DNA of 64,000 bases from Minisyncoccota bacterium. Its GTDB lineage: Bacteria > Patescibacteriota > Minisyncoccia > Phycocordibacterales > UBA2100. Under the pieces are notes generated by a model that saw nothing but the letters and a program-made list of their open reading frames with translations, was not told the DNA's origin and made no database searches. The stretch lies in contig JALHPE010000001.1 of the NCBI GenBank assembly GCA_022842645.1, forward strand, positions 329,462 through 393,461. The letters are read 5' to 3'. The position numbers were made by a program, and so were the translations under genes. This document shows positions 2,938-52,709 of the stretch, one piece after another (positions within the stretch are counted from its first letter, which is position 1; every line of letters begins with the position of its first letter).

Positions 2938-3444
2938 GTGATGCAATTCCAAGTACCTCAGTTCATCGAGGTCGAGGATAAAATCTTCGGACCCCTTACC
3001 TTCAAGCAATTCGTCTACGTTGCTGGAGGACTCGGCATTGCCTATATTCTCTGGCGTGCGCTCCCCACATTCCTAGCGGCACCACTTGGCCTTGCCTTCG
3101 CCGGGCTTGGGGTAGCGCTCGCTTTTGTGCAGTACAACGGGCAACCATTTATTGTTGCCGTAGAGCACGCTTTCTTCTATCTTCTGCGCGGGAAACTCTA
3201 CCTCTGGAACAATGAACAGGCAGTAGCACGTGCTAAAAAAACAACACAAGAAGTCAAACTTCCTGCAGAAGCTCCTTATATTCCACGACTTTCTGATAGT
3301 AAGCTCCACGAGCTTTCCTGGAGCCTCGACATCAATGAACGCATTGCTTCGGGTACCACAAGCGGGGAAGAAAGAGTCGCACGAAGTCCAATTGATGACC
3401 TCGTGGCCCCCGTACGCACGCCGCGCAATGCTATTCCTCGATAA
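2938..3444 (+). CDS. PrgI/VirB3-like small membrane protein of the T4SS
   Basis: The N-terminus EVEDKIFGPLTFKQFVYVAGGLGIAYILW followed by a second hydrophobic helix (LGLAFAGLGVALAFV) matches the PrgI-family pattern (K-I-x-G-x-L-T-x-R/K-Q plus two TM helices). The gene sits immediately upstream of VirB4, as PrgI does relative to PrgJ in Gram-positive conjugation systems. Confidence 0.5.
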   Translation: MMQFQVPQFIEVEDKIFGPLTFKQFVYVAGGLGIAYILWRALPTFLAAPLGLAFAGLGVALAFVQYNGQPFIVAVEHAFFYLLRGKLYLWNNEQAVARAKKTTQEVKLPAEAPYIPRLSDSKLHELSWSLDINERIASGTTSGEERVARSPIDDLVAPVRTPRNAIPR

Positions 3445-3447
3445 TCT

Positions 3448-4110
3448 ATGCCCGAAGCATCCACCATTCGTTCGCAAAACCGCTCCACCCAAGAGTTTGT
3501 TCCTATTTCCGAGGTGCGCGACGGTGTAATTGTGCTCAAGGATGGAAGCCTGCGCGCAATCCTTCTCGCCTCGTCTATCAACTTTGCCCTTAAGTCAGAG
3601 GATGAACAAACGGCGTTCATCGTGCAATTCCAAAACTTCCTGAATTCACTTGATTTCTCGACTCAGATTTTCATTGAATCCCGCATGCTTGATATTCGTC
3701 CCTATATTGCGACGCTTGAGGTGGCCTACAAAAGCCAAATGGACGATCTTATGCGCATACAGATTCGTGAATACATCGAATTCATCAAGAGTTTCACCGA
3801 AGCGGCAAACATCATGACGAAAAATTTCTTTGTGGTGGTTCCCTATAACCCCTCATCCCTACCTGCTCTCACCGGAAGTGGTGCAAGTAAATTGTTTGGG
3901 AAAAAGGGAACGGCTTCTGTGGCGGAGGCAAATCGCACTTTTGAAGAAAAAGTATCTCAGCTTGAACAACGTATTGCAATCGTCCAACAAGGCCTCGTGC
4001 GTTGTGGTGTGCGCACCGTGCAGCTCGGTACCGAGGAGGCGATTGAGCTCTTCTACAAACTCTTTAACCCTGGCGAGGAAGGGAAGCCGATGTCACTCAA
4101 CAATGAATAG
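3448..4110 (+). CDS. VirB4 N-terminal-domain-like protein (separate ORF; possible split VirB4)
   Basis: 220-aa ORF starting 3 nt after the PrgI-like gene and ending 56 nt before the VirB4 ATPase ORF, in a different frame. Its size plus the 660-aa ATPase ORF approximates a full-length VirB4/TrbE (~800-880 aa). No ATPase motifs of its own. Confidence 0.4.
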   Translation: MPEASTIRSQNRSTQEFVPISEVRDGVIVLKDGSLRAILLASSINFALKSEDEQTAFIVQFQNFLNSLDFSTQIFIESRMLDIRPYIATLEVAYKSQMDDLMRIQIREYIEFIKSFTEAANIMTKNFFVVVPYNPSSLPALTGSGASKLFGKKGTASVAEANRTFEEKVSQLEQRIAIVQQGLVRCGVRTVQLGTEEAIELFYKLFNPGEEGKPMSLNNE

Positions 4111-4166
4111 GAGTCAAGCTGCGAGCTTATAGGAAAAGCATAGTAGAATAAAGCTTACGGCGTTGG

Positions 4167-6149
4167 TTGTTACCATGTTGCCGCCTGACGCTTGAACCTA
4201 TGGGTATATTCGATCTTTTTTCAAAAAAAGGGGCGGAGCCGGCAGCGGTCTTGCCAGTCTTGCCAGAAGAGATCTATCGCACAGGGGTGCTTGGGCTTCA
4301 AGACGTGATTGCGCCGCACGCGCTTAAGATCAACTCACGCGAACTTGACCTCGGCGAGAAAATTGCACGCACCTTTTTTGTTATTTCGTATCCGCGCTTT
4401 CTCACGACGGGTTGGTTTGCTCCTATCATCAACCTCGACAAGGTTATTGATGTTTCGATTTTCGTCCACCCGATGGACACCAACGAAATGCTGCGTAAAT
4501 TCCAAAAGAAAGTAGCTGAGGTGCAATCTCAAATTTCAACACGAGAAGAAAAAGGTATGGTGCGCGACCCGGTTCTCGACACTGCGTATCAAGACCTTGA
4601 AAAACTCCGCGACTCTCTCCAGCAAGCACAAGAACGCATCTTCGAAGTGGGTCTCTACCTCACCATCTATGGCAATTCACGAGAGGAAATAGATAAAACA
4701 GAGAGCGAAATTCGCTCCATTCTCGAATCCCGCCTCGTTTACATTCGCCCAGCGCTTTTCCAGCAGGAACAAGGTTTTCGTTCGGTTATTCCACTTGCAA
4801 CGGATGAACTTGGTGTCCACACCAAACTCAATTCCGCACCACTCTCATCCATTTTCCCGTTCATTTCCTTCGACCTTACATCCGACCGCGGCATCCTTTA
4901 CGGCATCAATCGTCATAACTCCTCACTTATCCTCTTCGATCGTTTCTCGCTCGAAAACTACAATTCGGTCACGTTCGCAAAATCTGGTTCTGGTAAAAGC
5001 TACACAACGAAGCTCGAAATCCTGCGCTCGCTAATGTTCGATACGGAGGTTATCGTCATCGACCCCGAGCGTGAGTACGAATACCTTGCAGAAACCGTGG
5101 GTGGGCGGTACTTCAATATTTCTCTCTCATCTGAACACCACATCAATCCTTTTGACCTCCCAATTCCACGCGAAGACGAGTCGCCAGGCGATGTCTTGCG
5201 CAACAACATCATCACGCTCGTCGGCCTCTTCCGCATCATGCTCGGAGGACTTACTCCAGAGGAAGATGCGGTGATCGACAAAGCAATCACCGAAACCTAC
5301 GCTCTCAAGGACATCACGGCGGATGCAAATTTTGCCTCTATTGAGCCACCACTCCTTTCCGACTTCGAACTAGTGCTCTCCGGCATGGAGGGCTCGGAGT
5401 CTCTCGTCGCGCGCCTCTCGAAATACACCAAAGGCACGTGGTCGGGCTTCATGAACCGCCCGACAAACGTCGACATGAATAAAAAGCTTATTGTCTTTTC
5501 CGTCCGCGACATGGAAGACGATTTGAAGCCTGTCGCGATGTATATCATTACCCACCACATTTGGAATGCCGTACGCAAGGAACTTCGCAAGCGCCTCCTC
5601 GTCATCGACGAGGCATGGTGGATGATGAAATCTGAAGACACGGCATCCTTCCTCTTTGGAATAGCAAAACGTGGCCGTAAATACTACCTTGGACTCTCGA
5701 CGATTACCCAAGACGTAAACGACTTTCTCACCTCTCCCTATGGCGCAGCAATGATTACTAACTCGTCTATCCAACTCCTCCTGCGTCAATCACCTACATC
5801 CGTCGATCTCGTGCAAAGCACCTTTAAACTTTCTGACGAAGAAAAGTATCTCTTGCTCGAATCTGATGTGGGGGAGGGTATCTTCTTTGCAGGACTTAAA
5901 CATGTCGCGATTAAAGTCATTGCATCGTATACAGAAGACCAGATTATTACATCTGATCCATCACAAATTCTTGCGATAAAGAAAGCAAAACAGGAACTCG
6001 TTGCTTCACAGGAAGTGCCGAGCACTCCGGTGAGTCAAGAGGCGCGTGGTGCAGCGGCTGATATTCTGAAAAATGCAGAACTCAAGAGCGCAAGCGGAAC
6101 ACCGCAAGAGGCTCCAAGCGAACCCCCACTTCCGCCGGGTATAGTATGA
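4167..6149 (+). CDS. virB4: VirB4/TrbE/CagE-family type IV secretion ATPase (ATPase domain)
   Basis: Walker A FAKSGSGKSYTT, Walker B LLVIDEAWWMM, and the conserved downstream GRKYYLGLSTITQ typical of VirB4/TraC ATPases. The probable true start is MGIFDLFSKKG at 4200. Confidence 0.8.
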   Translation: MLPCCRLTLEPMGIFDLFSKKGAEPAAVLPVLPEEIYRTGVLGLQDVIAPHALKINSRELDLGEKIARTFFVISYPRFLTTGWFAPIINLDKVIDVSIFVHPMDTNEMLRKFQKKVAEVQSQISTREEKGMVRDPVLDTAYQDLEKLRDSLQQAQERIFEVGLYLTIYGNSREEIDKTESEIRSILESRLVYIRPALFQQEQGFRSVIPLATDELGVHTKLNSAPLSSIFPFISFDLTSDRGILYGINRHNSSLILFDRFSLENYNSVTFAKSGSGKSYTTKLEILRSLMFDTEVIVIDPEREYEYLAETVGGRYFNISLSSEHHINPFDLPIPREDESPGDVLRNNIITLVGLFRIMLGGLTPEEDAVIDKAITETYALKDITADANFASIEPPLLSDFELVLSGMEGSESLVARLSKYTKGTWSGFMNRPTNVDMNKKLIVFSVRDMEDDLKPVAMYIITHHIWNAVRKELRKRLLVIDEAWWMMKSEDTASFLFGIAKRGRKYYLGLSTITQDVNDFLTSPYGAAMITNSSIQLLLRQSPTSVDLVQSTFKLSDEEKYLLLESDVGEGIFFAGLKHVAIKVIASYTEDQIITSDPSQILAIKKAKQELVASQEVPSTPVSQEARGAAADILKNAELKSASGTPQEAPSEPPLPPGIV

Positions 6150-24976: not shown

Positions 24977-25123
24977 AATGAAAGAAAAATAGGGTCTGCA
25001 CGCTATTTTTCGTTACATTTCCGAGACGGAGGCATGTTTCGCGAGTACGCGAAACAGCCGAGTCGGGGTCGAAGAATTCTTGTCGCGACGGCGACAAGAA
25101 TATCTGTGACGACTGAAGACTGT
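24977..25123 (+). other. conserved tRNA 3'-trailer element (family member 1 of 4)
   Basis: Contains GACGGAGGC, GCCGAGTCGGGGTCG and AATATCTGTGAC motifs shared with the trailers at 29241-29405, 37908-38075 and 39382-39500, plus internal hairpins (TTTCGCG-AGTA-CGCGAAA; TTCTTGTCGC-GACG-GCGACAAGAA). Confidence 0.5.
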
Positions 25124-25462
25124 TTACAGCGGCAAATCAAACGCAAACGGCCCAGGGCCTGTGATGAGGAGTGTGATACTCATTACGAGTGTGAGCCAAA
25201 GGGTACTTTTCGGGGTTGAGCTGCCACGAGCAAGAGATTCGATAAGAGTGAGGATGGCAATGAGTGCCATAGGTTGCGTGAGTGCGCCCACAAAAAGGAA
25301 TAGTGCTGCGAGTCCAGTTACGACGCCGGAGGCGCGCGTCCAGATGTCTTCTTTGCGAAGATTCTCAAGCGCGATCTTGCCGAGTATGACCGCAACTGCA
25401 ATGCGAATGAGAAGGCCCGCGAATGGTGCGAGGTAGAGCAGTTCGGGGAAGTACGAAAGCAT
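25124..25462 (-). CDS. DoxX-like small integral membrane protein
   Basis: Three or four TM helices (LAPFAGLLIRIAVAVILG, GVVTGLAALFLFVGAL, IAILTLIESLA, LTLVMSITLLITG). The start is chosen at MLSYFPELL (25462) to avoid overlap with the convergent trmH-like gene. Confidence 0.45.
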   Translation of the reverse strand: MLSYFPELLYLAPFAGLLIRIAVAVILGKIALENLRKEDIWTRASGVVTGLAALFLFVGALTQPMALIAILTLIESLARGSSTPKSTLWLTLVMSITLLITGPGPFAFDLPL

Positions 25463-29240: not shown

Positions 29241-29405
29241 ATTGAAGCGGAGCAAAATTGCTCCGGAGGACAGTGCCTTCGCACTGTCCGTCAGGAATCG
29301 AAAGGCGGAGCGTTACCGAGCCACTAGGCGAGGTCGCGAGCCGGGGTCGCGAAATTTCTGAGTGACGACGAAGAAATATTTGTGACCGATTCCTGCCGAG
29401 AGCAC
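29241..29405 (+). other. conserved tRNA 3'-trailer element (family member 2 of 4), ending in a direct copy of the tRNA-Arg 3' end
   Basis: Hairpins GGAGCAAAATTGCTCC and GGACAGTGCCTTCGCACTGTCC. CAGGAATCGAA is antisense to the tRNA T-loop TTCGATTCCTG. Motifs GGCGGAGCG, GAGCCGGGGTCGCG and ATATTTGTGAC. The terminal GACCGATTCCTGCCGAGAGCA duplicates tRNA positions 29221-29240. Confidence 0.5.
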
Positions 29406-37696: not shown

Positions 37697-37740
37697 GCCA
37701 ACTTGTAGCCCCTAGCGTGTAGCTGGTAGGATAACTCTGA

Positions 37741-37812
37741 CCCCTTGTAGCTCAATGGACAGAGCAGCGGACTTCTAAGCCGTTGATGTTGGTTCGATTC
37801 CAGCCGAGGGGA
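37741..37812 (+). tRNA. tRNA-Arg (anticodon TCT)
   Basis: Acceptor CCCCTTG/CGAGGGG, D-arm GCTC-AATGGACA-GAGC, anticodon loop CTTCTAA (imperfect anticodon stem GCGGA/GCCGT), T-arm GTTGG-TTCGATT-CCAGC, discriminator A. Confidence 0.7.
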
Positions 37813-37834
37813 ATTAAGGGTATAGTAGCCCTGC

Positions 37835-37907
37835 GGGCGATTAGCTCAGTTGGTAGAGCAATCCGTTTACACCGGAAAGGTCACAGGTTCGAGTCCTGTA
37901 TCGCCCA
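37835..37907 (+). tRNA. tRNA-Val (anticodon TAC)
   Basis: Acceptor GGGCGAT/ATCGCCC, D-arm GCTC-AGTTGGTA-GAGC, anticodon loop TTTACAC, T-arm ACAGG-TTCGAGT-CCTGT, discriminator A. 22 nt after tRNA-Arg(TCT). Confidence 0.85.
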
Positions 37908-38075
37908 CAAAATCAATGAGCGCAATCCGCAGGATTGCGCGACTATGATTTTGTAGGAGCGATACAGGACTCGAAAGACGGAGGCGGGGAACCCGTCAGA
38001 AGACGGGTCGCCGAGTCGGGGTCGTGAAATTGTGCGAGCGACTGGTGAGCAAAATATCTGTGACCGAGCCCACTG
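37908..38075 (+). other. conserved tRNA 3'-trailer element (family member 3 of 4)
   Basis: Hairpin GCGCAATCC-GCA-GGATTGCGC. GCGATACAGGACTCGAA is exactly antisense to the tRNA-Val 3' T-arm/acceptor TTCGAGTCCTGTATCGC. Motifs GACGGAGGCGGGG, hairpin ACCCGTC-AGAAG-ACGGGT, GCCGAGTCGGGGTCG and AATATCTGTGACCGAGCCCAC. Confidence 0.5.
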
Positions 38076-38142
38076 TTTGATCGTGAGAGGAATATGTGAA
38101 AAGTACTTTGACCTCTGGCGCTTTCTCCGTTAGCGTAGTGGG

Positions 38143-38823
38143 ATGTCTGAAAAATCAGTGCAGTGCATCGGCGTCATTCTCGACGGGAATCGCCGGTGGG
38201 CTAAGGCAAAAGGGCTCCCCACGCTTGAAGGCCATCGGCGCGGATTTGAGAATTTAAAATCGTGCGCGCGGTGGGTGCGCGACCGAAATATTCCGCATCT
38301 CGTTGTGTTTGCGTTTTCAACTGAAAATTGGAATCGTTCAGAAGAGGAAGTTGCGTATTTGATGGATATTTTTCGCACCGCAATTCACGATAGCGCAGAA
38401 GAGTTAGGGAGAGAAAACATTCGCATCCGATTTATCGGGCAGCGCGAGCGCTTCGTTGAAGATATTAAAGAGGAGATGCGGGACGCAGAAGAGAAAACGA
38501 GCACGAACACCGGCATGACGCTCTGGATGTGCCTTTCATATGGCGCGCGTGCGGAGATTGTGGCGGCCGCAGAAACGCTCCGAGCTTCGAATACTCTAAT
38601 TTCTGAAGAGACACTCCGCTCGCATTTTTGGAGCGCTGAGATGCCCGACCCTGACATCATCATTCGCACCGGCGGCGCACAGCGTCTCTCCAACTTCCTC
38701 CTCTGGCAGGCGGCGTATAGCGAGCTTTTCTTTCTTGAGCCTCACTGGCCGGATTTCGATGAGAAACTGCTCGATAGCGTACTCTTCGAATACGCGGAGC
38801 GAGAGCGGCGGATGGGCAAATAG
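38143..38823 (+). CDS. uppS: undecaprenyl-diphosphate synthase (cis-prenyltransferase)
   Basis: GVILDGNRRWAKAKGLP, HLVVFAFSTENWNR, and C-terminal RTGGAQRLSNFLLWQAAYSELFF motifs. Confidence 0.9.
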   Translation: MSEKSVQCIGVILDGNRRWAKAKGLPTLEGHRRGFENLKSCARWVRDRNIPHLVVFAFSTENWNRSEEEVAYLMDIFRTAIHDSAEELGRENIRIRFIGQRERFVEDIKEEMRDAEEKTSTNTGMTLWMCLSYGARAEIVAAAETLRASNTLISEETLRSHFWSAEMPDPDIIIRTGGAQRLSNFLLWQAAYSELFFLEPHWPDFDEKLLDSVLFEYAERERRMGK

Positions 38824-38869
38824 TCCATAGGTTGCCTCTCATTTTCAGCTGTGGTACAGTGCCGCAACT

Positions 38870-39283
38870 ATGGTCGCTGCAAAAGCAAAAGCGGGCACAC
38901 CTATCTCGGCACTTCGCCCGGGGGATACTGTGCGTGTATGGCAAAAAATTGAGGAAAAGGGGAAGACGCGCCTCCAGGCGTTTGAGGGACTTGTCCTCGC
39001 CCGTAAGCATGGCAGCGAAGCCGGCGGCACCTTTACCGTCCGCAAAGTTGCTTCTGGCGTGGGCGTTGAGAAGATTTTCCCCGTGCACTCTCCTATGATC
39101 GATCGTGTTGAGCTTGTCAAAACGGCTCGTATGCGCCGCGCGAAGCTCTACTTCATTCGTGATAAGGTTGCGCGCGAAGCGCGCCGCCAACTTCGTCGTT
39201 CGCGCCTTGTGCGCGATGATGCACAGGTGGCTGAGGTTGCTGAAGAAGTGGTAGAAACTGGAACTTCAGAGGAAAGTAAGTAG
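38870..39283 (+). CDS. rplS: 50S ribosomal protein L19
   Basis: RPGDTVRVWQKIEEKGKTRLQAFEGLVLARKH…FTVRKVASGVGVEKIFPVHSPMIDRVELV is near-consensus L19. Confidence 0.9.
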   Translation: MVAAKAKAGTPISALRPGDTVRVWQKIEEKGKTRLQAFEGLVLARKHGSEAGGTFTVRKVASGVGVEKIFPVHSPMIDRVELVKTARMRRAKLYFIRDKVAREARRQLRRSRLVRDDAQVAEVAEEVVETGTSEESK

Positions 39284-39297
39284 TATTATCCCTGTGC

Positions 39298-39381
39298 GCG
39301 CAGGTGGCGAAATTGGTAGACGTACTACCTTGAGGTGGTAGCGCCCGCAAGGGCATGGAGGTTCGAGTCCTCTCCTGCGCA
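39298..39381 (+). tRNA. tRNA-Leu (anticodon GAG), long variable arm
   Basis: Acceptor GCGCAGG/CCTGCGC, anticodon stem CTACC/GGTAG with loop TTGAGGT, variable arm CGCCCGCAAGGGCAT, T-arm GGAGG-TTCGAGT-CCTCT, discriminator A. Confidence 0.85.
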
Positions 39382-39500
39382 CAAAAATTCAAAACCGAGG
39401 CATGCCTCGGTTTTGTTTATTTTTGCAGCGGGAGAGGACTCAGACTGCGAGCCGGGGTTGCACACACGTTTATCCGACGGGATCAAAATTATGTGTGACC
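39382..39500 (+). other. conserved tRNA 3'-trailer element (family member 4 of 4)
   Basis: Terminator-like hairpin CCGAGGCATGCCTCGG plus a T-run. GGAGAGGACTC is antisense to the tRNA-Leu T-arm GAGTCCTCTCC. Motifs GCGAGCCGGGGTTGC and AAATTATGTGTGACC. Confidence 0.45.
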
Positions 39501-39504
39501 ACCA

Positions 39505-40641
39505 ATGACCTTTCCCAAACCGCGCTATCATATCCCCATGCGCCGGTACTTGGGGAAGTTACCGAAATCAACGGAAGAGCTCTTGCATTGGTATGAGCGG
39601 TATATTTCGCCGCTTACACTTATTATCGCGTTTACAATCGATACATTCGCGTTTCGGAGTATTGATCTACGGTGGAGCAGTATTCTTCTCCTCATATATC
39701 TTTCGATAGTCGCGACGGCGATCGTGCTCTATCACCTCATTCAGTCAGGGAGACTGCGAGGAAAATTTTTCCTCACCATACTGCCGTTTGTGCCGGTTGC
39801 GATGCAATTCGGTTTTGGCGGACTCTTTAGCGCGTTTGTGATTCTCTACAGCCAGAGCGCGGCGTACGCCGCAAGTTGGATTTTCGTCGTGGGACTTGCA
39901 CTCCTGCTTATTGGAAACGAGCGTTTCCGTAGGCTTTACACCGGCTTCGTATTTCAGGCGAGCATGTTTTTTGTCGTTCTCCTCTCGTTTCTCATTTTCT
40001 TTTTGCCGGTCGTGCTGGGGCGCATTGGACTCGAGATTTTTCTTGCGAGCGAACTTCTGGGGCTCATCGTTATGGGTGGGTTTGTATATATTTTTGCACT
40101 TCTGGTGCCCGCAGTTTTTCGCGCAGCGCGTTTTGAACTATTCCGTACCGTCGGATCCATTTTTCTTGTGTTTAACCTTTTGTATTTTACGAACGCCATC
40201 CCACCACTTCCGCTTGCTATCAAAGACGCGGGAGTCTATCACGGTGTAAAGAAAGTGGGTGAGGGCTATGTTTTAAAATCACAACCTCTCGAATGGTACC
40301 AGCGCTATTTGCGCTATAACACCGTTTTCTATAAAGCTCCGGGCGAGCGTGCTTATGTATTCACCTCTATTTTTGCGCCCACCAAGCTCGCAACGACTAT
40401 TACGCACGAATGGCAGTTCTATGACACTTTGCGCAAGGAGTGGCGCACGGTGAGTCGAGTGAGTTATCCGATACAGGGTGGGCGCGATGGAGGGTATCGC
40501 GGCTACACGGTACAGGACGCTCTCACGCCTGGTGACTGGCGGGTGAACGTGCGTATCGCAGACGGGCGCCTTGTCGGGCGTGTCGCGTTTGAGGTGCAAA
40601 ATGTACCGAGCCCGGTCGAGGCTGAGGAGGTGGTTCGCTAA
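39505..40641 (+). CDS. polytopic membrane protein with a C-terminal soluble beta-rich domain (hypothetical)
   Basis: About 8 TM helices in the first 230 aa. C-terminal …WRVNVRIADGRLVGRVAFEV… domain. No catalytic motif seen. Confidence 0.45.
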   Translation: MTFPKPRYHIPMRRYLGKLPKSTEELLHWYERYISPLTLIIAFTIDTFAFRSIDLRWSSILLLIYLSIVATAIVLYHLIQSGRLRGKFFLTILPFVPVAMQFGFGGLFSAFVILYSQSAAYAASWIFVVGLALLLIGNERFRRLYTGFVFQASMFFVVLLSFLIFFLPVVLGRIGLEIFLASELLGLIVMGGFVYIFALLVPAVFRAARFELFRTVGSIFLVFNLLYFTNAIPPLPLAIKDAGVYHGVKKVGEGYVLKSQPLEWYQRYLRYNTVFYKAPGERAYVFTSIFAPTKLATTITHEWQFYDTLRKEWRTVSRVSYPIQGGRDGGYRGYTVQDALTPGDWRVNVRIADGRLVGRVAFEVQNVPSPVEAEEVVR

Positions 40642-40702: not shown

Positions 40703-41191
40703 ATGGTGTACGTAGTATGTGGTCATTGTGGAGTAGATTTTCGTGCGAAGCCATCTCATATTGCCCTGGGGTACGCGAAATTTTGCTCGAGAAAGTGCAG
40801 TTTTGAGAACATGCGAAACGGGGAATGGGTTGAGTGTGATGGATGTGGAACGAAAGTATATCGGAGCTTAAAGTCCATTAACGCATCTAAAAGTCATAAG
40901 TATTTTTGTAGCAAGTCATGTCAGACAAAGTGGAGAAATAACGATTTCAGTGGTAAGCGGCATGCAAATTGGCAACACGGACGCGGCTCATATAGGAATA
41001 TTATGAAAAGAGCCGGTGTAGAAGCTGTGTGTGATTTATGTCGCATAACTGATGAGAGGGTGCTGATTGTTCATCACAAAGATCAGGATAGGAAAAATAA
41101 TAGTATTAAAAATCTCGCGTGGCTTTGTCGGAATTGTCACTATCTTGCGCATCAATACGCGATTGGACGGGACCGGGGTCTGATTGTATAG
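40703..41191 (+). CDS. HNH endonuclease with N-terminal Cys4 zinc-ribbon motifs
   Basis: CGHCG…C…C and CDGCG…C…C pairs, then the HNH core LIVHHKDQDRKNNSIKNLAWLCRNCH (H-H…N…N…C…C-H). Confidence 0.7.
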   Translation: MVYVVCGHCGVDFRAKPSHIALGYAKFCSRKCSFENMRNGEWVECDGCGTKVYRSLKSINASKSHKYFCSKSCQTKWRNNDFSGKRHANWQHGRGSYRNIMKRAGVEAVCDLCRITDERVLIVHHKDQDRKNNSIKNLAWLCRNCHYLAHQYAIGRDRGLIV

Positions 41192-49256: not shown

Positions 49257-52200
49257 GTGAGCGACTTTGCTACGATACGCATCATGGCTGAAAATCAGGG
49301 GAAATCGGATGCCGCTCAGCGGGAAGAGGAGATACTCGAATTCTGGCGGGAGAATAAGACGTTTGAGCGCTCGCTTGAAAAGCACGCCCCAAAGGGCGAG
49401 TTTGTGTTTTATGACGGCCCGCCGTTTGCGACAGGGCTTCCGCACCACGGCTCGCTTCTTTCTTCGATCATCAAAGACGTGATTCCGCGCTACAAGACGA
49501 TGCGCGGCTACAGAGTGCGCCGCCGGTGGGGATGGGATACGCACGGACTTCCTATTGAGAACCTTGTTGAGAAGGAGTTGGGGCTCAAGACCAAGAAAGA
49601 GATTCTCGATATTGGTATCGCGAAGTTCAACGAAACTGCACGCGGCATGGTTTTGAAATACGTGCACGATTGGAAACACTACATCGAGCGCGTCGGACGT
49701 TGGGTGGACTACGAGAATTCCTACAAGACGATGGACAACTCCTACATCGAGAGCGTGTGGTGGGCGCTGAAGCGCATTCATGAGAAAGGACTTCTTTATG
49801 AAGGGCGGAAAGTGCTCATGTACTGCACACACTGCGAAACGCCTCTCGCAAAAGCAGAAATCGCGGCGGACAATACGTATAAAGATGTTACTGAAGAGGC
49901 GGTAACGGTGAAGTTTGAGATTGTAGATCAGCCGAAGACCTACTTTCTCGCGTGGACAACAACGCCGTGGACGTTACCGGGGAACGTTGCGCTCGCCGTT
50001 GGAGCGGAGATCGACTATGTGAAAGCGAGTGTCGGGGATATCACGTATATCCTTGCTAAAGAGCGCGTGAGCACCGTCTTGAAGGATGTTACGCACGTCA
50101 TCGTCGGCACTATGCGGGGGAGTGACCTTGTCGGGAAACGCTACGCGCCGGTTGTTTCAGTTTCTGCACTTACCTCTGAAAGCTCGCATCGCGTGCAGAC
50201 GGCGGATTTTGTTACAACAGAAGATGGCACCGGCATCGTGCACATTGCGCCGATGTATGGCGAGGACGACTACCAACTCGGCGTGCGCGAGAAGCTCCCC
50301 ATGGTGCAGCTCCTTAATCCGAACGGAACATATAACGATGCCGCGCCCGAGCTTATCCGCGGCAAATACCTAAAAGAGGGAGCAAAAGACATTAAGCGCG
50401 ATTTGGAATCGCGCGGACTTCTCTTTGCGCGCGAGAACCATACACACTCATATCCGCATTGCTGGCGTTGTGGCACTCCACTTATCTACAACGCCGTTTC
50501 TTCGTGGTTCATCAATATTCAGGACGTAAAGCAGAAGATCATTTCCGAAAACCAGAAGATTAACTGGGTGCCGGAGCACTTGAAAAATGGGCGTTTTGGA
50601 AAGATTCTCGAGAGCGCCCCCGATTGGACGATCTCACGTAACCGTTTCTGGGCGTCCCCGCTTCCATTCTGGAAGTCTAAAGAGGGGAAGGTGATGGTGG
50701 TTGGCTCACTTGCGGAACTGAAAGAAAAGATGAAAAAGAGCGGGAACACCTATTTCACGATGCGACATGGTGAGGCCGAGACAAATGTGCAAGGGATTTT
50801 GAATTGTGACCCCGATGCACCATATGCGCTGACTCAACTTGGGCGCACAGGCGTGCTCGAAGCGGCGCGTGCATTCAAGGATGCTGGGCATCATGTCGAC
50901 CTTGTGGTGGCATCGCCCTTTGTGCGGACGAAAGAATCTGTCGCGATCTTCGCAGAGGTACTTGGACTCTCAGAAGAGCAGATTCGATACGAGCCCCGGC
51001 TGGGGGAATATAACTTTGGGGTACTCAATGGGGCTTCTGTCTTGGCGTGGCATGAAAAGTTTGCACCGAGCGTCGATAGATTTAATCAGGGTCCTCAGGG
51101 AGGAGAAAATGATGCACAAGTGCGGGCGCGAATGCTCGCGGTTGTGCAAGAGCTAGAACGCACCGAAAAAGGAAAAACTATTTTAATCGTATCGCATGGC
51201 ACACCGCTCTGGCTTCTTCAGGCAACGGTTAATGGGCTTTCGCGGGAAGACATTGCACAACGCTTTGTGCGCGAATATCCAAATAATGCAGCCGTACAAC
51301 CGTTGAGATACGTTCCACTTCCCTTAAACCATGATAACGAGTTGGATCTCCATCGGCCCTACATTGATGACATCGTGCTTCTTGATGAAGACGGCACCGA
51401 ATATCACCGCATTCCGGAGGTTGTTGACTGTTGGGTGGAGAGCGGCTCTATGCCGTTTGCGGAGTATCACTATCCGTTTGAAAATAAGGACGAATTTGAA
51501 AAGCGCGCGCCCGGCGACTTTATCGCCGAATATATCGCACAGACGCGCACGTGGTTTTACTACATGCATGCGCTCGGAGTCGTGCTCTTCGACAGAATCG
51601 CGTTTAAGAATGTGGTGACGACAGGCACCATCGTTGCCGCAGATGGCGAGAAAATTTCGAAATCGAAGAAAAATTATACTGACCCGCTTGAACTCATTGA
51701 GCGCTACGGCGCAGATGCGGTGCGCCTCTATCTCATGGGCTCTCCCGTGATGCAGGCTGAGGATTTGCGTTTCCGCGACGACGACGTGCGCGAGGCGCAT
51801 AACCGCACGATTGGGATTCTCTGGAACAGTTTCAAATTCTTCGATCTCTATCAGAAAGACTTCGACGGAAGTGCCGTGGCACGTAAGAGTGCGCACGTCT
51901 TGGATCGTTGGATTCTCGCGCTTCTTGATCAGACGACGACCGAAATCAGTGAGGCGTTTGATGCCTACGACACCCCGCGCGCGTGCCGTGCGGTGCGCGC
52001 ATTTGTAGACGAATATTCAACGTGGTACGTGCGCAGAAGTCGTGAGCGCGTGAAGAGCGAGTGGCACGATCGGCAGTTTGCGCTCGCAACACAGCAAGAA
52101 GTGTTGCTCACATTCTCAAAGCTCATTGCGCCCGTGATGCCGTTTCTCGCTGAGGGTATCTATCGCGGCATTGCGGATGGAGGAAGCGTGCACCTGGAAA

Positions 52201-52709
52201 GCTGGCCCGAGGTGCAGAAGGGATTCTTCGCACGCCTCTTTGGGGCAAAGGACACCGTCCTTGAAGACATGAAAGAAGTGCGCGCAACCGTGACGAAAGC
52301 ACTTGAGGCGCGTGACAGAGCAGGAATGAAAGTGCGCCAGCCGCTCACCAAGCTTGAGATTGGTTCACATATCTCAAAAGAATTGCGCGAGATTATTCGC
52401 GATGAAGTGAATGTGAAGGAGGTTACCATTGCCTCAGATCTAAAAGCGGGTGAAGTGCGGCTCGACACCATGATTACACCAGAACTTGCGCGCGAAGGTT
52501 TGGTGCGCGAGATTATTCGCATGGGGCAGGATGAGCGCAAGAAAGCTGGGTGCGCTCCAGGAGACCATCTTGCACACGTACTCGTTGGGGGATCTGATGA
52601 GGTGCTGAGTGCTGTGCGCGAGCATGTGCTTGCAATTCAGGAGGCGCTCAAGACGGAGCGCGTTGAGGCCCAAGCGGGAGAGGTGCTCCATGTCGTAATC
52701 AGAAGGTAG
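49257..52709 (+). CDS. ileS: isoleucyl-tRNA synthetase (type 2-like) carrying an inserted histidine-phosphatase (PGAM-like) domain
   Basis: HIGH-region PPFATGLPHHGS. Editing domain TTPWTLPGNVALAV. IleRS-specific DWTISRNRFWASPLPFW. KMSKS as GEKISKSKKN. Between the W-x-x-S-R-x-R-x-W block and the …DCWVESGS block sits an extra domain of about 190 aa with RHG (FTMRHGEAETN) and SHG (ILIVSHGTPLW) histidine-phosphatase signatures. Confidence 0.9.
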   Translation: MSDFATIRIMAENQGKSDAAQREEEILEFWRENKTFERSLEKHAPKGEFVFYDGPPFATGLPHHGSLLSSIIKDVIPRYKTMRGYRVRRRWGWDTHGLPIENLVEKELGLKTKKEILDIGIAKFNETARGMVLKYVHDWKHYIERVGRWVDYENSYKTMDNSYIESVWWALKRIHEKGLLYEGRKVLMYCTHCETPLAKAEIAADNTYKDVTEEAVTVKFEIVDQPKTYFLAWTTTPWTLPGNVALAVGAEIDYVKASVGDITYILAKERVSTVLKDVTHVIVGTMRGSDLVGKRYAPVVSVSALTSESSHRVQTADFVTTEDGTGIVHIAPMYGEDDYQLGVREKLPMVQLLNPNGTYNDAAPELIRGKYLKEGAKDIKRDLESRGLLFARENHTHSYPHCWRCGTPLIYNAVSSWFINIQDVKQKIISENQKINWVPEHLKNGRFGKILESAPDWTISRNRFWASPLPFWKSKEGKVMVVGSLAELKEKMKKSGNTYFTMRHGEAETNVQGILNCDPDAPYALTQLGRTGVLEAARAFKDAGHHVDLVVASPFVRTKESVAIFAEVLGLSEEQIRYEPRLGEYNFGVLNGASVLAWHEKFAPSVDRFNQGPQGGENDAQVRARMLAVVQELERTEKGKTILIVSHGTPLWLLQATVNGLSREDIAQRFVREYPNNAAVQPLRYVPLPLNHDNELDLHRPYIDDIVLLDEDGTEYHRIPEVVDCWVESGSMPFAEYHYPFENKDEFEKRAPGDFIAEYIAQTRTWFYYMHALGVVLFDRIAFKNVVTTGTIVAADGEKISKSKKNYTDPLELIERYGADAVRLYLMGSPVMQAEDLRFRDDDVREAHNRTIGILWNSFKFFDLYQKDFDGSAVARKSAHVLDRWILALLDQTTTEISEAFDAYDTPRACRAVRAFVDEYSTWYVRRSRERVKSEWHDRQFALATQQEVLLTFSKLIAPVMPFLAEGIYRGIADGGSVHLESWPEVQKGFFARLFGAKDTVLEDMKEVRATVTKALEARDRAGMKVRQPLTKLEIGSHISKELREIIRDEVNVKEVTIASDLKAGEVRLDTMITPELAREGLVREIIRMGQDERKKAGCAPGDHLAHVLVGGSDEVLSAVREHVLAIQEALKTERVEAQAGEVLHVVIRR

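Follow-up and report, generated by a model that had tools for sequence, protein, structure and literature searches.

A candidate guide-bearing, protein-less integrative cassette behind tRNA and other genes of Patescibacteria, and its putative relic downstream of a tRNA-Leu gene

The stretch of DNA considered here, called the window throughout, comprises 64,000 nucleotides (nt) of a Minisyncoccota bacterium (GenBank assembly GCA_022842645.1, contig JALHPE010000001.1, positions 329,462 to 393,461), lies near dnaA and dnaN in a patescibacterial chromosome that resembles those of Kaiserbacteria, and contains a tRNA-Leu(GAG) gene followed in turn by a terminator-like hairpin, a short segment antisense to the tRNA, conserved motifs and the open reading frame (ORF) of a DUF2914 membrane protein (Table 1). 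We see a slightly better than even chance that bases 39383-39499, between the tRNA and that ORF, are the decayed remains of a small insertion element without a protein gene, which belongs to a family that combines a short antisense guide, a conserved fold and a second copy of the end of the gene behind which it stands. An earlier note on this DNA, made from its letters alone, had described a textbook terminator directly after the tRNA and, beyond it, an antisense T-arm segment and family motifs running up to the membrane-protein gene. The strings it quoted are all present, each within about a base of the span given, and the order holds: a terminator scan recovered the hairpin between tRNA and motifs, the antisense segment is exact, the motifs match a family with four copies in the window, and they end 5-38 nt before the DUF2914 start codon, depending on which start is taken.

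The hairpin stem begins eight bases 3' of tRNA-Leu and forms the first helix of the minimum free energy (MFE) fold. The scan placed it at 39390-39415 (string AAAACCGAGGCATGCCTCGGTTTTGTTTATTTTT at 39391-39424), with an 11-bp stem holding 6 G-C pairs, a 4-nt loop and the tail TTTATTTTTG, so that it has the predicted form of an intrinsic terminator, a G+C-rich stem-loop followed directly by a T-run. It was scored as a terminator on both strands, the A-tract upstream making it bidirectional, and two terminator-like sites were found against 0.4 expected in shuffled sequence. The first ATG of the downstream ORF (39505-40641) is at 39505, and the gene probably starts at the ATG at 39538 instead, since its homologues are all called at 364-367 residues.

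Table 1. Features of the tRNA-Leu locus, other copies of the element in the window, and large serine recombinase genes at other loci (L numbers denote loci outside the window; CM, covariance model; MFE, minimum free energy; H0, H1 and H2, hairpins of the element; X, the gene end that is duplicated)
Feature	Sequence	Positions	Strand	Basis or remarks
tRNA-Leu(GAG), target gene	window	39298-39382	+	ARAGORN; Rfam RF00005, 50.6 bits
Terminator-like hairpin and T-run, in the spacer between gene end and guide	window	39390-39425	+	terminator scan; MFE fold
Guide remnant GGAGAGGACTC, exact antisense of tRNA-Leu 39367-39377	window	39431-39441	+	11/11 match; family guide rule
Collapsed H1 region, AGAC-TG-CGAGCC-GGG	window	39442-39456	+	cmsearch alignment against consensus A2
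Hairpin H2, GUUGCACACA...UGUGUGAC, ending in the family TGTGAC	window	39457-39499	+	MFE fold, z = -4.24; alignment
Expected place of the displaced tRNA 3' end (X_right)	window	39500-39537	+	absent; runs into the DUF2914 gene
Copy after tRNA-Lys, class targeting the extreme tRNA 3' end	window	24978-25130	+	CM 75.4 bits
Copy after tRNA-Arg(GCG), intact reference	window	29241-29405	+	spacer/H0, guide CAGGAATCGAA, H1, H2, duplicate; CM 91 bits
Copy after tRNA-Val	window	37909-38084	+	17-nt guide GCGATACAGGACTCGAA; displaced end decayed to CGAGCCCAC; CM 69.9 bits
Large serine recombinase	L053	3729-5321	-	
Large serine recombinase	L094	727-2256	+	
Large serine recombinase	L071	3282-4628	-	

Intact members of the family are about 110-250 nt long and are ordered as follows: gene end, an optional terminator, the hairpin H0, the guide, the hairpins H1 and H2, and a displaced duplicate of the gene's 3' end. 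We call the insertion point J and the duplicated block from J onwards X; at the Leu locus the block within the gene (X_left) is 39364-39382, from C56 to A73-C74 of the tRNA. The window has four exact occurrences of CGAGYCGGGGTYG, which lie 60-110 nt 3' of plus-strand tRNA genes (Lys, Arg-GCG, Val and Leu) and place the element after four of the seven tRNA genes present; the other three, tRNA-His, tRNA-Ser and tRNA-Arg(TCT), are without it here and carry it in other genomes. The Arg copy ends in an 18/18 exact duplicate of its tRNA 3' end (29387-29404) and, with X included, folds by energy alone into a three-way junction of guide:X, H1 and H2 in the MFE structure, while the guide of the Lys copy is antisense to the acceptor end and trailer of its tRNA. 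The covariance model described below found no further copy in the window with E < 0.7.

Of the four, the Leu copy has decayed furthest. Its guide is complementary to the T-loop and the 3' strand of the T-stem, a match for which we estimate a chance of about 0.002 for an 11-mer within such a distance, and its flanks GCAGCG and AGA are a corrupted antisense continuation (expected GCGCAG and GAA), AGA replacing GAA in the bases next to the junction. The motif CGAGCCGGGGTTG lies at 39448-39460, within GCGAGCCGGGGTTGC at 39447-39461, and AAATTATGTGTGACC follows at 39486-39500. In H1 the part comprising the conserved AGRCGSAG and the variable hairpin is deleted and the R:Y pair has become A:C, H2 is intact with compensatory changes, CGAGCCGGGG is also retained, and after TGTGAC the sequence reads CACCAATG... 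in place of the expected displaced tRNA end CGAGTCCTCTCC. Its covariance-model score is 24.6 bits (E 2e-6), against 70-91 bits for the other three window copies, which are among the sequences from which the model was built and score high partly by construction. Because H1 and the displaced tRNA end are lost, the Leu copy is probably inert, a relic; the locus itself is modest, and its interest lies in the family.

The family was collected by scanning one genome per species with the pattern CGAGYCGGGGTYG-N20-40-ATNTGTGAC, which gave at least 118 loci, overwhelmingly from Patescibacteria, with a few from Elusimicrobiota; the patescibacterial labels among the matches listed are Paceibacterota, Nomura-, Lloyd-, Kaiser- and Zambryskii-bacteria and 'Saccharibacteria'. 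A covariance model built from 86 copies, including the Lys, Arg and Val copies of the window, recognized 126 copies in 680 kb of the listed loci and none in loci of unrelated organisms that match the pattern by chance (e.g., Nostoc and Cryobacterium). In viral collections the strict pattern had no match, and a relaxed pattern gave 108 loci (863 kb), none of which was accepted by the model; these are chance matches. Rfam at its gathering threshold returned only tRNAs for the whole window, and at E values up to 10 it returned nothing relevant over 37700-39600, a span that holds the intact Val copy. The family is apparently undescribed so far; TIGR-Tas was checked and is unrelated.

The fold was derived by running RNAalifold on the 86 copies and counting their pairs explicitly. 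H1 has the layout A-GRC-GSA-G, hairpin, C-GA-GYC, in which G-R-C pairs with G-Y-C, the internal loop GSA/GA comes next, and an invariant G-C pair closes the variable hairpin beyond it; the R:Y pair is A-U in 42 copies, G-C in 42 and G-U in one. A GGG linker leads to H2, which spans GUCGCG... to ...UGUGAC with many compensatory pairs, one invariant G.U pair and a second that is G.U in 67 of the 86 copies and A-U in the rest. Pairing reaches 97-99.6% in H1 and 98.5% in H2, and the covariation score of 0.404 compares with 0.168 in shuffled alignments (none of 500 reaches it) and 0.12-0.18 when the partners are slid. The fold belongs to the strand with the sense of the upstream gene, here the plus strand, since the G.U pairs would be A.C mismatches on the opposite one. 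H0 stands just 5' of the antisense segment in many copies, often with the loop AACUGC, and the succession of tRNA, hairpin and motifs seen at the Leu locus is common elsewhere, 26 of 77 tRNA-linked members having a hairpin and T-run between the tRNA and the guide end. A second scaffold family with the same combination of H0 and guide has a different, shorter body ending ...CTGTAAGRNGA (L042 ~2560-2700, L099 ~500-640, L098 ~1500-1650, L094 ~2660-2720); its junction lies elsewhere in the T-loop, and it sometimes shares an array with copies of the first family.

The guide is the segment just 5' of AGRCGSAG and is the reverse complement of the 2 nt before X together with the first 7-17 bases of X, about 9-19 nt in all, the target being read uninterrupted across J. 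Positions 1-8 of the guide:X helix are each 60-87% paired with three to five pair types, and pairing falls to background beyond about 9 bp. The guide always covers the insertion point, including the 2 nt outside the duplicated block: these are complementary in 31 of 31 T-loop cases and covary with the guide, being TT/AA at most T-loop sites and TC/GA in L043, CA/TG at topA, and TG/CA, TC/GA or CG/CG at tRNA-end sites. The first base of X is C in 75 of 86 copies and is followed by a purine in the large majority; in L075 it is A. The targets fall into several classes. In the T-loop class the insertion is at tRNA position 55|56; in the tRNA-end class (e.g., L058, and the Lys copy of the window) the tRNA end, trailer, loop and guide make up one long hairpin; tmRNA 3' ends are targeted in L018, L036 and L089; the last ~30 codons of topoisomerase I (topA, GGCA|CAAAAAC...) in L009, L021, L052, L077, L100 and L109; and the last six codons of rplL (L7/L12), stop codon included, in L075 (~4790-4916, minus strand). 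The guide fits the working, left copy of the end best: at topA it matches that copy in 10 of 10 positions in L021, L052, L077 and L100 and the displaced copy in 7-9 of 10, and among T-loop cases whose two copies differ the left one is the better match in five and equal in seven, the right one never being better.

Two groups of members depart from this picture. In a sub-family (L043, L048, L064, L079, L091, L101, L044, L077) the guides end in ...GAUGAGAA or ...ACGAGAA rather than ...GAUUCGAA, with a systematic mismatch at T-loop positions 56-58, and still pair with the T-stem and the 2 nt past the junction. In L017 (493-595, minus strand), L110 (2463-2565, plus strand), L108, L060 and L084 the segment before H1 is a self-contained hairpin, GAAATGC...GCATTTC; the L017 and L110 copies precede a tRNA gene and have as flanks a duplicate of the tRNA leader with the first 7 nt of the tRNA and an inverted copy of its positions 1-16, an arrangement that does not fit the simple guide rule.

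The diversity of targets bears on what the earlier note had proposed for the Leu motifs, namely that beyond an efficient terminator they would act at the DNA level or as the 5' leader of the membrane-protein gene, and that the antisense segment would pair in trans with mature tRNA. A role as leader of the DUF2914 gene, as an RNA pairing in trans with tRNA-Leu, or as both, agrees with the position of the motifs, which follow the terminator-like hairpin and end just before the start codon, but we regard it as very improbable: the genes downstream differ at every copy, are unrelated and lie on either strand, the DUF2914 gene of relatives has no such leader, no promoter-like site was found in 39200-39600, and the Leu copy is the most decayed of the window. 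Pairing in trans does not survive the comparison either, as the segment at the same position in other members is antisense to topA, rplL, tmRNA or a tRNA trailer. What stands of the first proposal is its DNA-level half, in that the motifs would be part of an inserted element. At the same synteny in a relative (L120), tRNA-Leu is followed by a different terminator hairpin, only the stub GCGGGAGA and then an unrelated gene, and in another relative (L121) the next gene begins 8 nt 3' of tRNA-Leu.

All classes have the sequence between J and the gene end in two copies, one within the intact gene and one directly after the TGTGAC of the scaffold. X is an exact 18-21-nt repeat of the upstream tRNA 3' end in at least 25 loci, running from T-loop C56 to position 73/74, or through an encoded CCA in L064, L091 and L116; in L101 the displaced copy has CCA, yet the repeat ends at C74. 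The repeat in topA of L109 is ~97 nt long and ends at the stop codon, and in rplL of L075 the working copy AAGGTCACACTTAAATAA and the displaced copy AAGGTTACATTGAAATAA both encode KVTLK*. Displaced topA ends keep the reading frame and still specify the same peptide, KTIPERCSDKLCPNHNPHK..., with differences at up to one third of the bases; their codon changes relative to the working ends are 34 synonymous against 15 non-synonymous (12:4 in L052, 9:4 in L077, 11:7 in L100 and 2:0 in L109), a ratio roughly opposite to that expected of a local duplicate in neutral decay. As the differences are mostly synonymous, the two topA ends diverged as working genes in different lineages, one of them having probably come with the element. 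The simplest unit inserted at J would then consist of the gene end from J onwards, a spacer with or without terminator, H0, guide, H1 and H2. A target-site duplication by staggered cuts was considered and dropped, since the length of the duplication, 3 to 97 nt, depends on where the gene ends; a diversity-generating retroelement, with the gene ends as variable and template repeats, was dropped too, the differences not being adenine-specific and no reverse transcriptase having been found among the 51 window ORFs scanned.

Tandem arrays of two or three units parted by the repeat are frequent (L001, L030, L064, L069, L077, L078 and others), and presence at a given tRNA is patchy among relatives. 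These features can be set against the view that the family is a non-mobile, cis-acting RNA, made from the tRNA trailer or the mRNA 3' untranslated region, whose antisense segment pairs with its own upstream transcript and controls termination, 3' processing or stability, the duplications being by-products of local rearrangement. Copies are indeed always co-oriented with the upstream gene and just downstream of it, with the fold on the sense strand; the better fit of the guide to the working copy is what selection on pairing in cis predicts; and in the tRNA-end class the guide with tRNA end and trailer resembles an extended intrinsic terminator. We nevertheless consider this view unlikely, as one scaffold serves all tRNA isotypes, tmRNA, topA and rplL, the displaced ends diverged under purifying selection, which points to import or replacement and not to a local duplication, a guide paired with the T-arm would interfere with the folding of the tRNA, and the arrays, the many decayed copies (Leu included) and the patchy presence also speak against it.

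Direct repeats of a tRNA 3' end starting in the T-loop are a classic signature of integration into tRNA genes. The copies could accordingly be scars of integrase-bearing islands or prophages, with the repeat as att core and the motifs as the leftover of an attP arm; such repeats are seen here, tmRNA is targeted as well, and large serine recombinase genes adjoin element-bearing tRNAs in three or four of the 118 listed loci (L053, L071 and L094 among them; Table 1). This origin is improbable in our opinion, given that more than 120 copies share a uniform small size and none holds an integrase or cargo gene, that the hairpins vary in sequence and keep their pairing, as expected of a single-strand fold and not of duplex arms bound by a protein, and that a single scaffold family, in each case with a guide that fits, is used at tRNA genes of all isotypes and at protein genes alike; around the serine recombinase genes no repeat-flanked island was found, those loci having no further repeat copy that would flank one. 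No copy contains an ORF, and a search for copies whose left repeat lies far upstream, as in a cargo-carrying form, returned tandem arrays only. Pfam was run on 51 window ORFs, about a dozen small ones lying outside the scan, and NCBIfam on ten, i.e., nine without a Pfam match and an ORF of the HNH_3 family; the recombination- or nuclease-related matches were RecA, RuvABC/RuvX and that small HNH_3 ORF.

A guide-directed, site-specific integrative cassette is, on balance and only just, the probable interpretation of the family. The architecture, the covarying fold, the agreement of guide and target, the replaced gene ends, the arrays and the taxonomic spread are observed, whereas the use of the guide to direct integration, the kind of nucleic acid and the nature of the enzyme are inferences. 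Signs of movement are the arrays, the patchy presence and, in L101, an interior of identical sequence beside two different tRNA-Ser genes. The folded plus strand, as RNA or possibly single-stranded DNA, would pick an N2|CR... site by means of its guide; such sites would lie in the T-loop or 3' end of a tRNA or tmRNA gene, or close to the stop codon in conserved protein genes. Recombination would then join the ...GAC end to the target, and the interrupted gene would go on working with the gene end and terminator that the element brings. As an element that parts a gene from its own terminator must bring one, the hairpin behind tRNA-Leu would, under the cassette interpretation, be supplied by the element and not be the native tRNA terminator. 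After integration the left junction would again resemble a target and the right junction a donor, a property that could give rise to the tandem arrays and also permit excision by the same chemistry. The RNA itself may be the catalyst, or else a protein whose gene lies elsewhere in the genome. Homing by an RNA-guided nuclease was dropped as a mechanism, since the left junction would stay a perfect target.

Several observations weigh against such a cassette. No copy with a cargo gene, no excised circle and no pair of empty and filled alleles at strain level was seen, and it is from the arrangement of the copies that we infer movement. No recombinase, transposase, reverse transcriptase or TnpB/IscB-like gene lies within any copy, no transposase, integrase, reverse transcriptase or TnpB was recognized among the 51 scanned ORFs of the window, and all-against-all clustering of 1176 ORFs gave no protein family that recurs near the copies in more than eight of the 118 listed loci. 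The two copies of L101, beside tRNA-Ser(CGA) and tRNA-Ser(TGA), have a 129-nt interior with 100% identity, and each is flanked on both sides by the 19 nt of its own tRNA; such a pattern fits a target-site-duplication mechanism or gene conversion better than the simple carriage of a gene end, and requires either conversion between copies or a repeat copied from the target. The terminator-like hairpin upstream of the scaffold in one third of the copies argues against strong co-transcription with the gene. As to novelty, no description of the family was found in the open-access full text to which the search was confined, so that an earlier description is possible.

The position of the junction would also suit a mobile element acting at the RNA level, in which the three-way junction would be a small self-cleaving and self-ligating ribozyme that cuts ...GAC|C, circularises, reverse-splices at guide-matched sites and reaches the genome by reverse transcription. 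The insertion junction falls exactly at the three-way junction, about 12 conserved unpaired purines (A-A, GSA/GA, GGG) and the conserved G.U pairs lie on the transcribed strand, the guide pairs across the scissile position in donor and target alike, and a protein gene was not found in or near the element. A cut at the left junction would, on the other hand, destroy the tRNA, no reverse transcriptase was seen among the scanned window ORFs, and no Rfam ribozyme family (hammerhead, twister, pistol, hatchet, HDV-like or hairpin) matched 37700-39600 at E values up to 10; we hold little expectation of this mechanism. A wider form of the cassette interpretation, tentative and in our view rather doubtful, would make the family a programmable integration system, in which a ~100-nt scaffold with a 5' guide of about 10-19 nt directs the insertion of a cassette at any guide-matched N2|CR... 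site. Catalysis would fall to the folded nucleic acid or to a recombinase with a single gene per genome, and the replacement end would let the cassette colonise essential genes (tRNA, tmRNA, topA and rplL) across Patescibacteria.

Some further features of the window and its relatives may be recorded. An ORF for a 162-residue HNH_3 endonuclease (40703-41191) stops 12 nt before tRNA-His (41203); in the relatives L119, L120 and L122 tRNA-His follows the DUF2914 gene without such an ORF, and for that reason it looks like an inserted, free-standing homing-endonuclease gene. A class I aminoacyl-tRNA synthetase of 1150 residues, probably isoleucyl (49257-52709), has a His_Phos_1 domain inserted at residues 502-671. 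Near the window start, ORFs of the PrgI family and TraG/VirB4-like P-loop ORFs (2938-6149) suggest that a type IV secretion or conjugation-like cluster lies in the neighbourhood of dnaA. Several independent assemblies of the same species (Logan contigs L123-L126) end ~208 nt upstream of the DUF2914 gene, inside tRNA-Leu, consistent with assembly breaks at the repeated tRNA and element sequence.

If the cassette interpretation is true, streamlined Patescibacteria genomes of ~1 Mb hold many copies of a tiny protein-less element that finds its insertion site through base pairing and restores the gene that it has interrupted. It would represent a compact, naturally reprogrammable module of guide and scaffold, akin in interest to bridge RNAs and OMEGA systems, and a new route for the horizontal replacement of essential-gene ends. 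Its presence would account for the conserved 'tRNA trailer motifs', and perhaps for contig breaks in these genomes as well. For annotation it carries a warning, as partial tRNA, topA and rplL fragments beside these genes would be displaced originals.

Among known systems, the integrative elements of tRNA and tmRNA genes (the att sites of phages, integrative and conjugative elements and genomic islands, with their T-loop sublocation) are similar in that they insert in the 3' part of a gene, supply a replacement 3' end, leave the displaced end as a direct repeat and stack in tandem. Direct repeats at both junctions are present in the family (at least 25 loci, 18-21 nt) and lost in the Leu copy. 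The present elements differ in their size of ~110-250 nt, in the conserved single-strand fold and antisense guide, and in the use of all tRNA isotypes plus protein genes by one family; they are too short to hold an integrase and none was found in them, nor was a Phage_integrase or Recombinase match found among the 51 scanned window ORFs. With the attC sites of integrons they share a site set by a conserved fold of variable sequence, the formation of arrays, an integration that remakes the next site, and a basal helix that spans the recombination point with its 3' arm in the neighbouring sequence. Unlike in attC, this basal helix is target-specific, being formed by the guide, the cargo is a gene end and not an ORF, and IntI and an attI/Pc platform are lacking; no RYYYAAC/GTTRRRY core sites are visible in alignment A2, whose consensus ends ...AUNUGUGAC|CR, and no integrase was found.

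The bridge (seek) RNAs of IS110 and IS1111 are likewise structured end RNAs with short programmable segments matching the target around the crossover, and a passage in one study reports solo copies of a bridge RNA gene (PMC12288879). The elements described here differ from them in having no DEDD/serine transposase nearby, a single contiguous guide instead of target and donor loops, a duplication from J to the gene end instead of a 2-nt core, and no Rfam match at E values up to 10. IS200/IS605 ends, palindrome-associated transposable elements (PATEs) and the omega-RNA of TnpB also combine single-strand hairpin ends with short guides that pair with the cleavage or target site, and the omega-RNA scaffold directly abuts the flanking sequence, as here; the guides of IS200/IS605 have 4 nt against 9-19 nt in our family, which further differs in its duplicated gene end and in that neither TnpA nor TnpB was found. 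For OMEGA RNAs (TnpB/IscB omega-RNA, HEARO and IS605-orfB motifs) Rfam gave no match in the window, and no tnpB or iscB was seen among the scanned ORFs. A TnpB-style reading, with the bases after TGTGAC as a 3' guide and GGTT as target-adjacent motif, was dropped, the topA sites having GGCA and a ~97-nt duplication to the stop codon.

Among non-mobile elements, a Rho-independent terminator has the same form as the Leu hairpin and differs in context, the latter probably lying inside an inserted cassette. T-box leaders gave no Rfam match, and the antisense segment pairs with the T-arm and the acceptor 3' strand, not with the anticodon or NCCA. The ends of the element are not mutual inverted repeats, as those of a miniature inverted-repeat transposable element would be, and the duplication, from ~3 to ~97 nt, follows the gene end. 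The features that define each of the mobile systems compared are thus not those of the family, which by this comparison would be a miniature, guide-bearing, protein-less integrative cassette.

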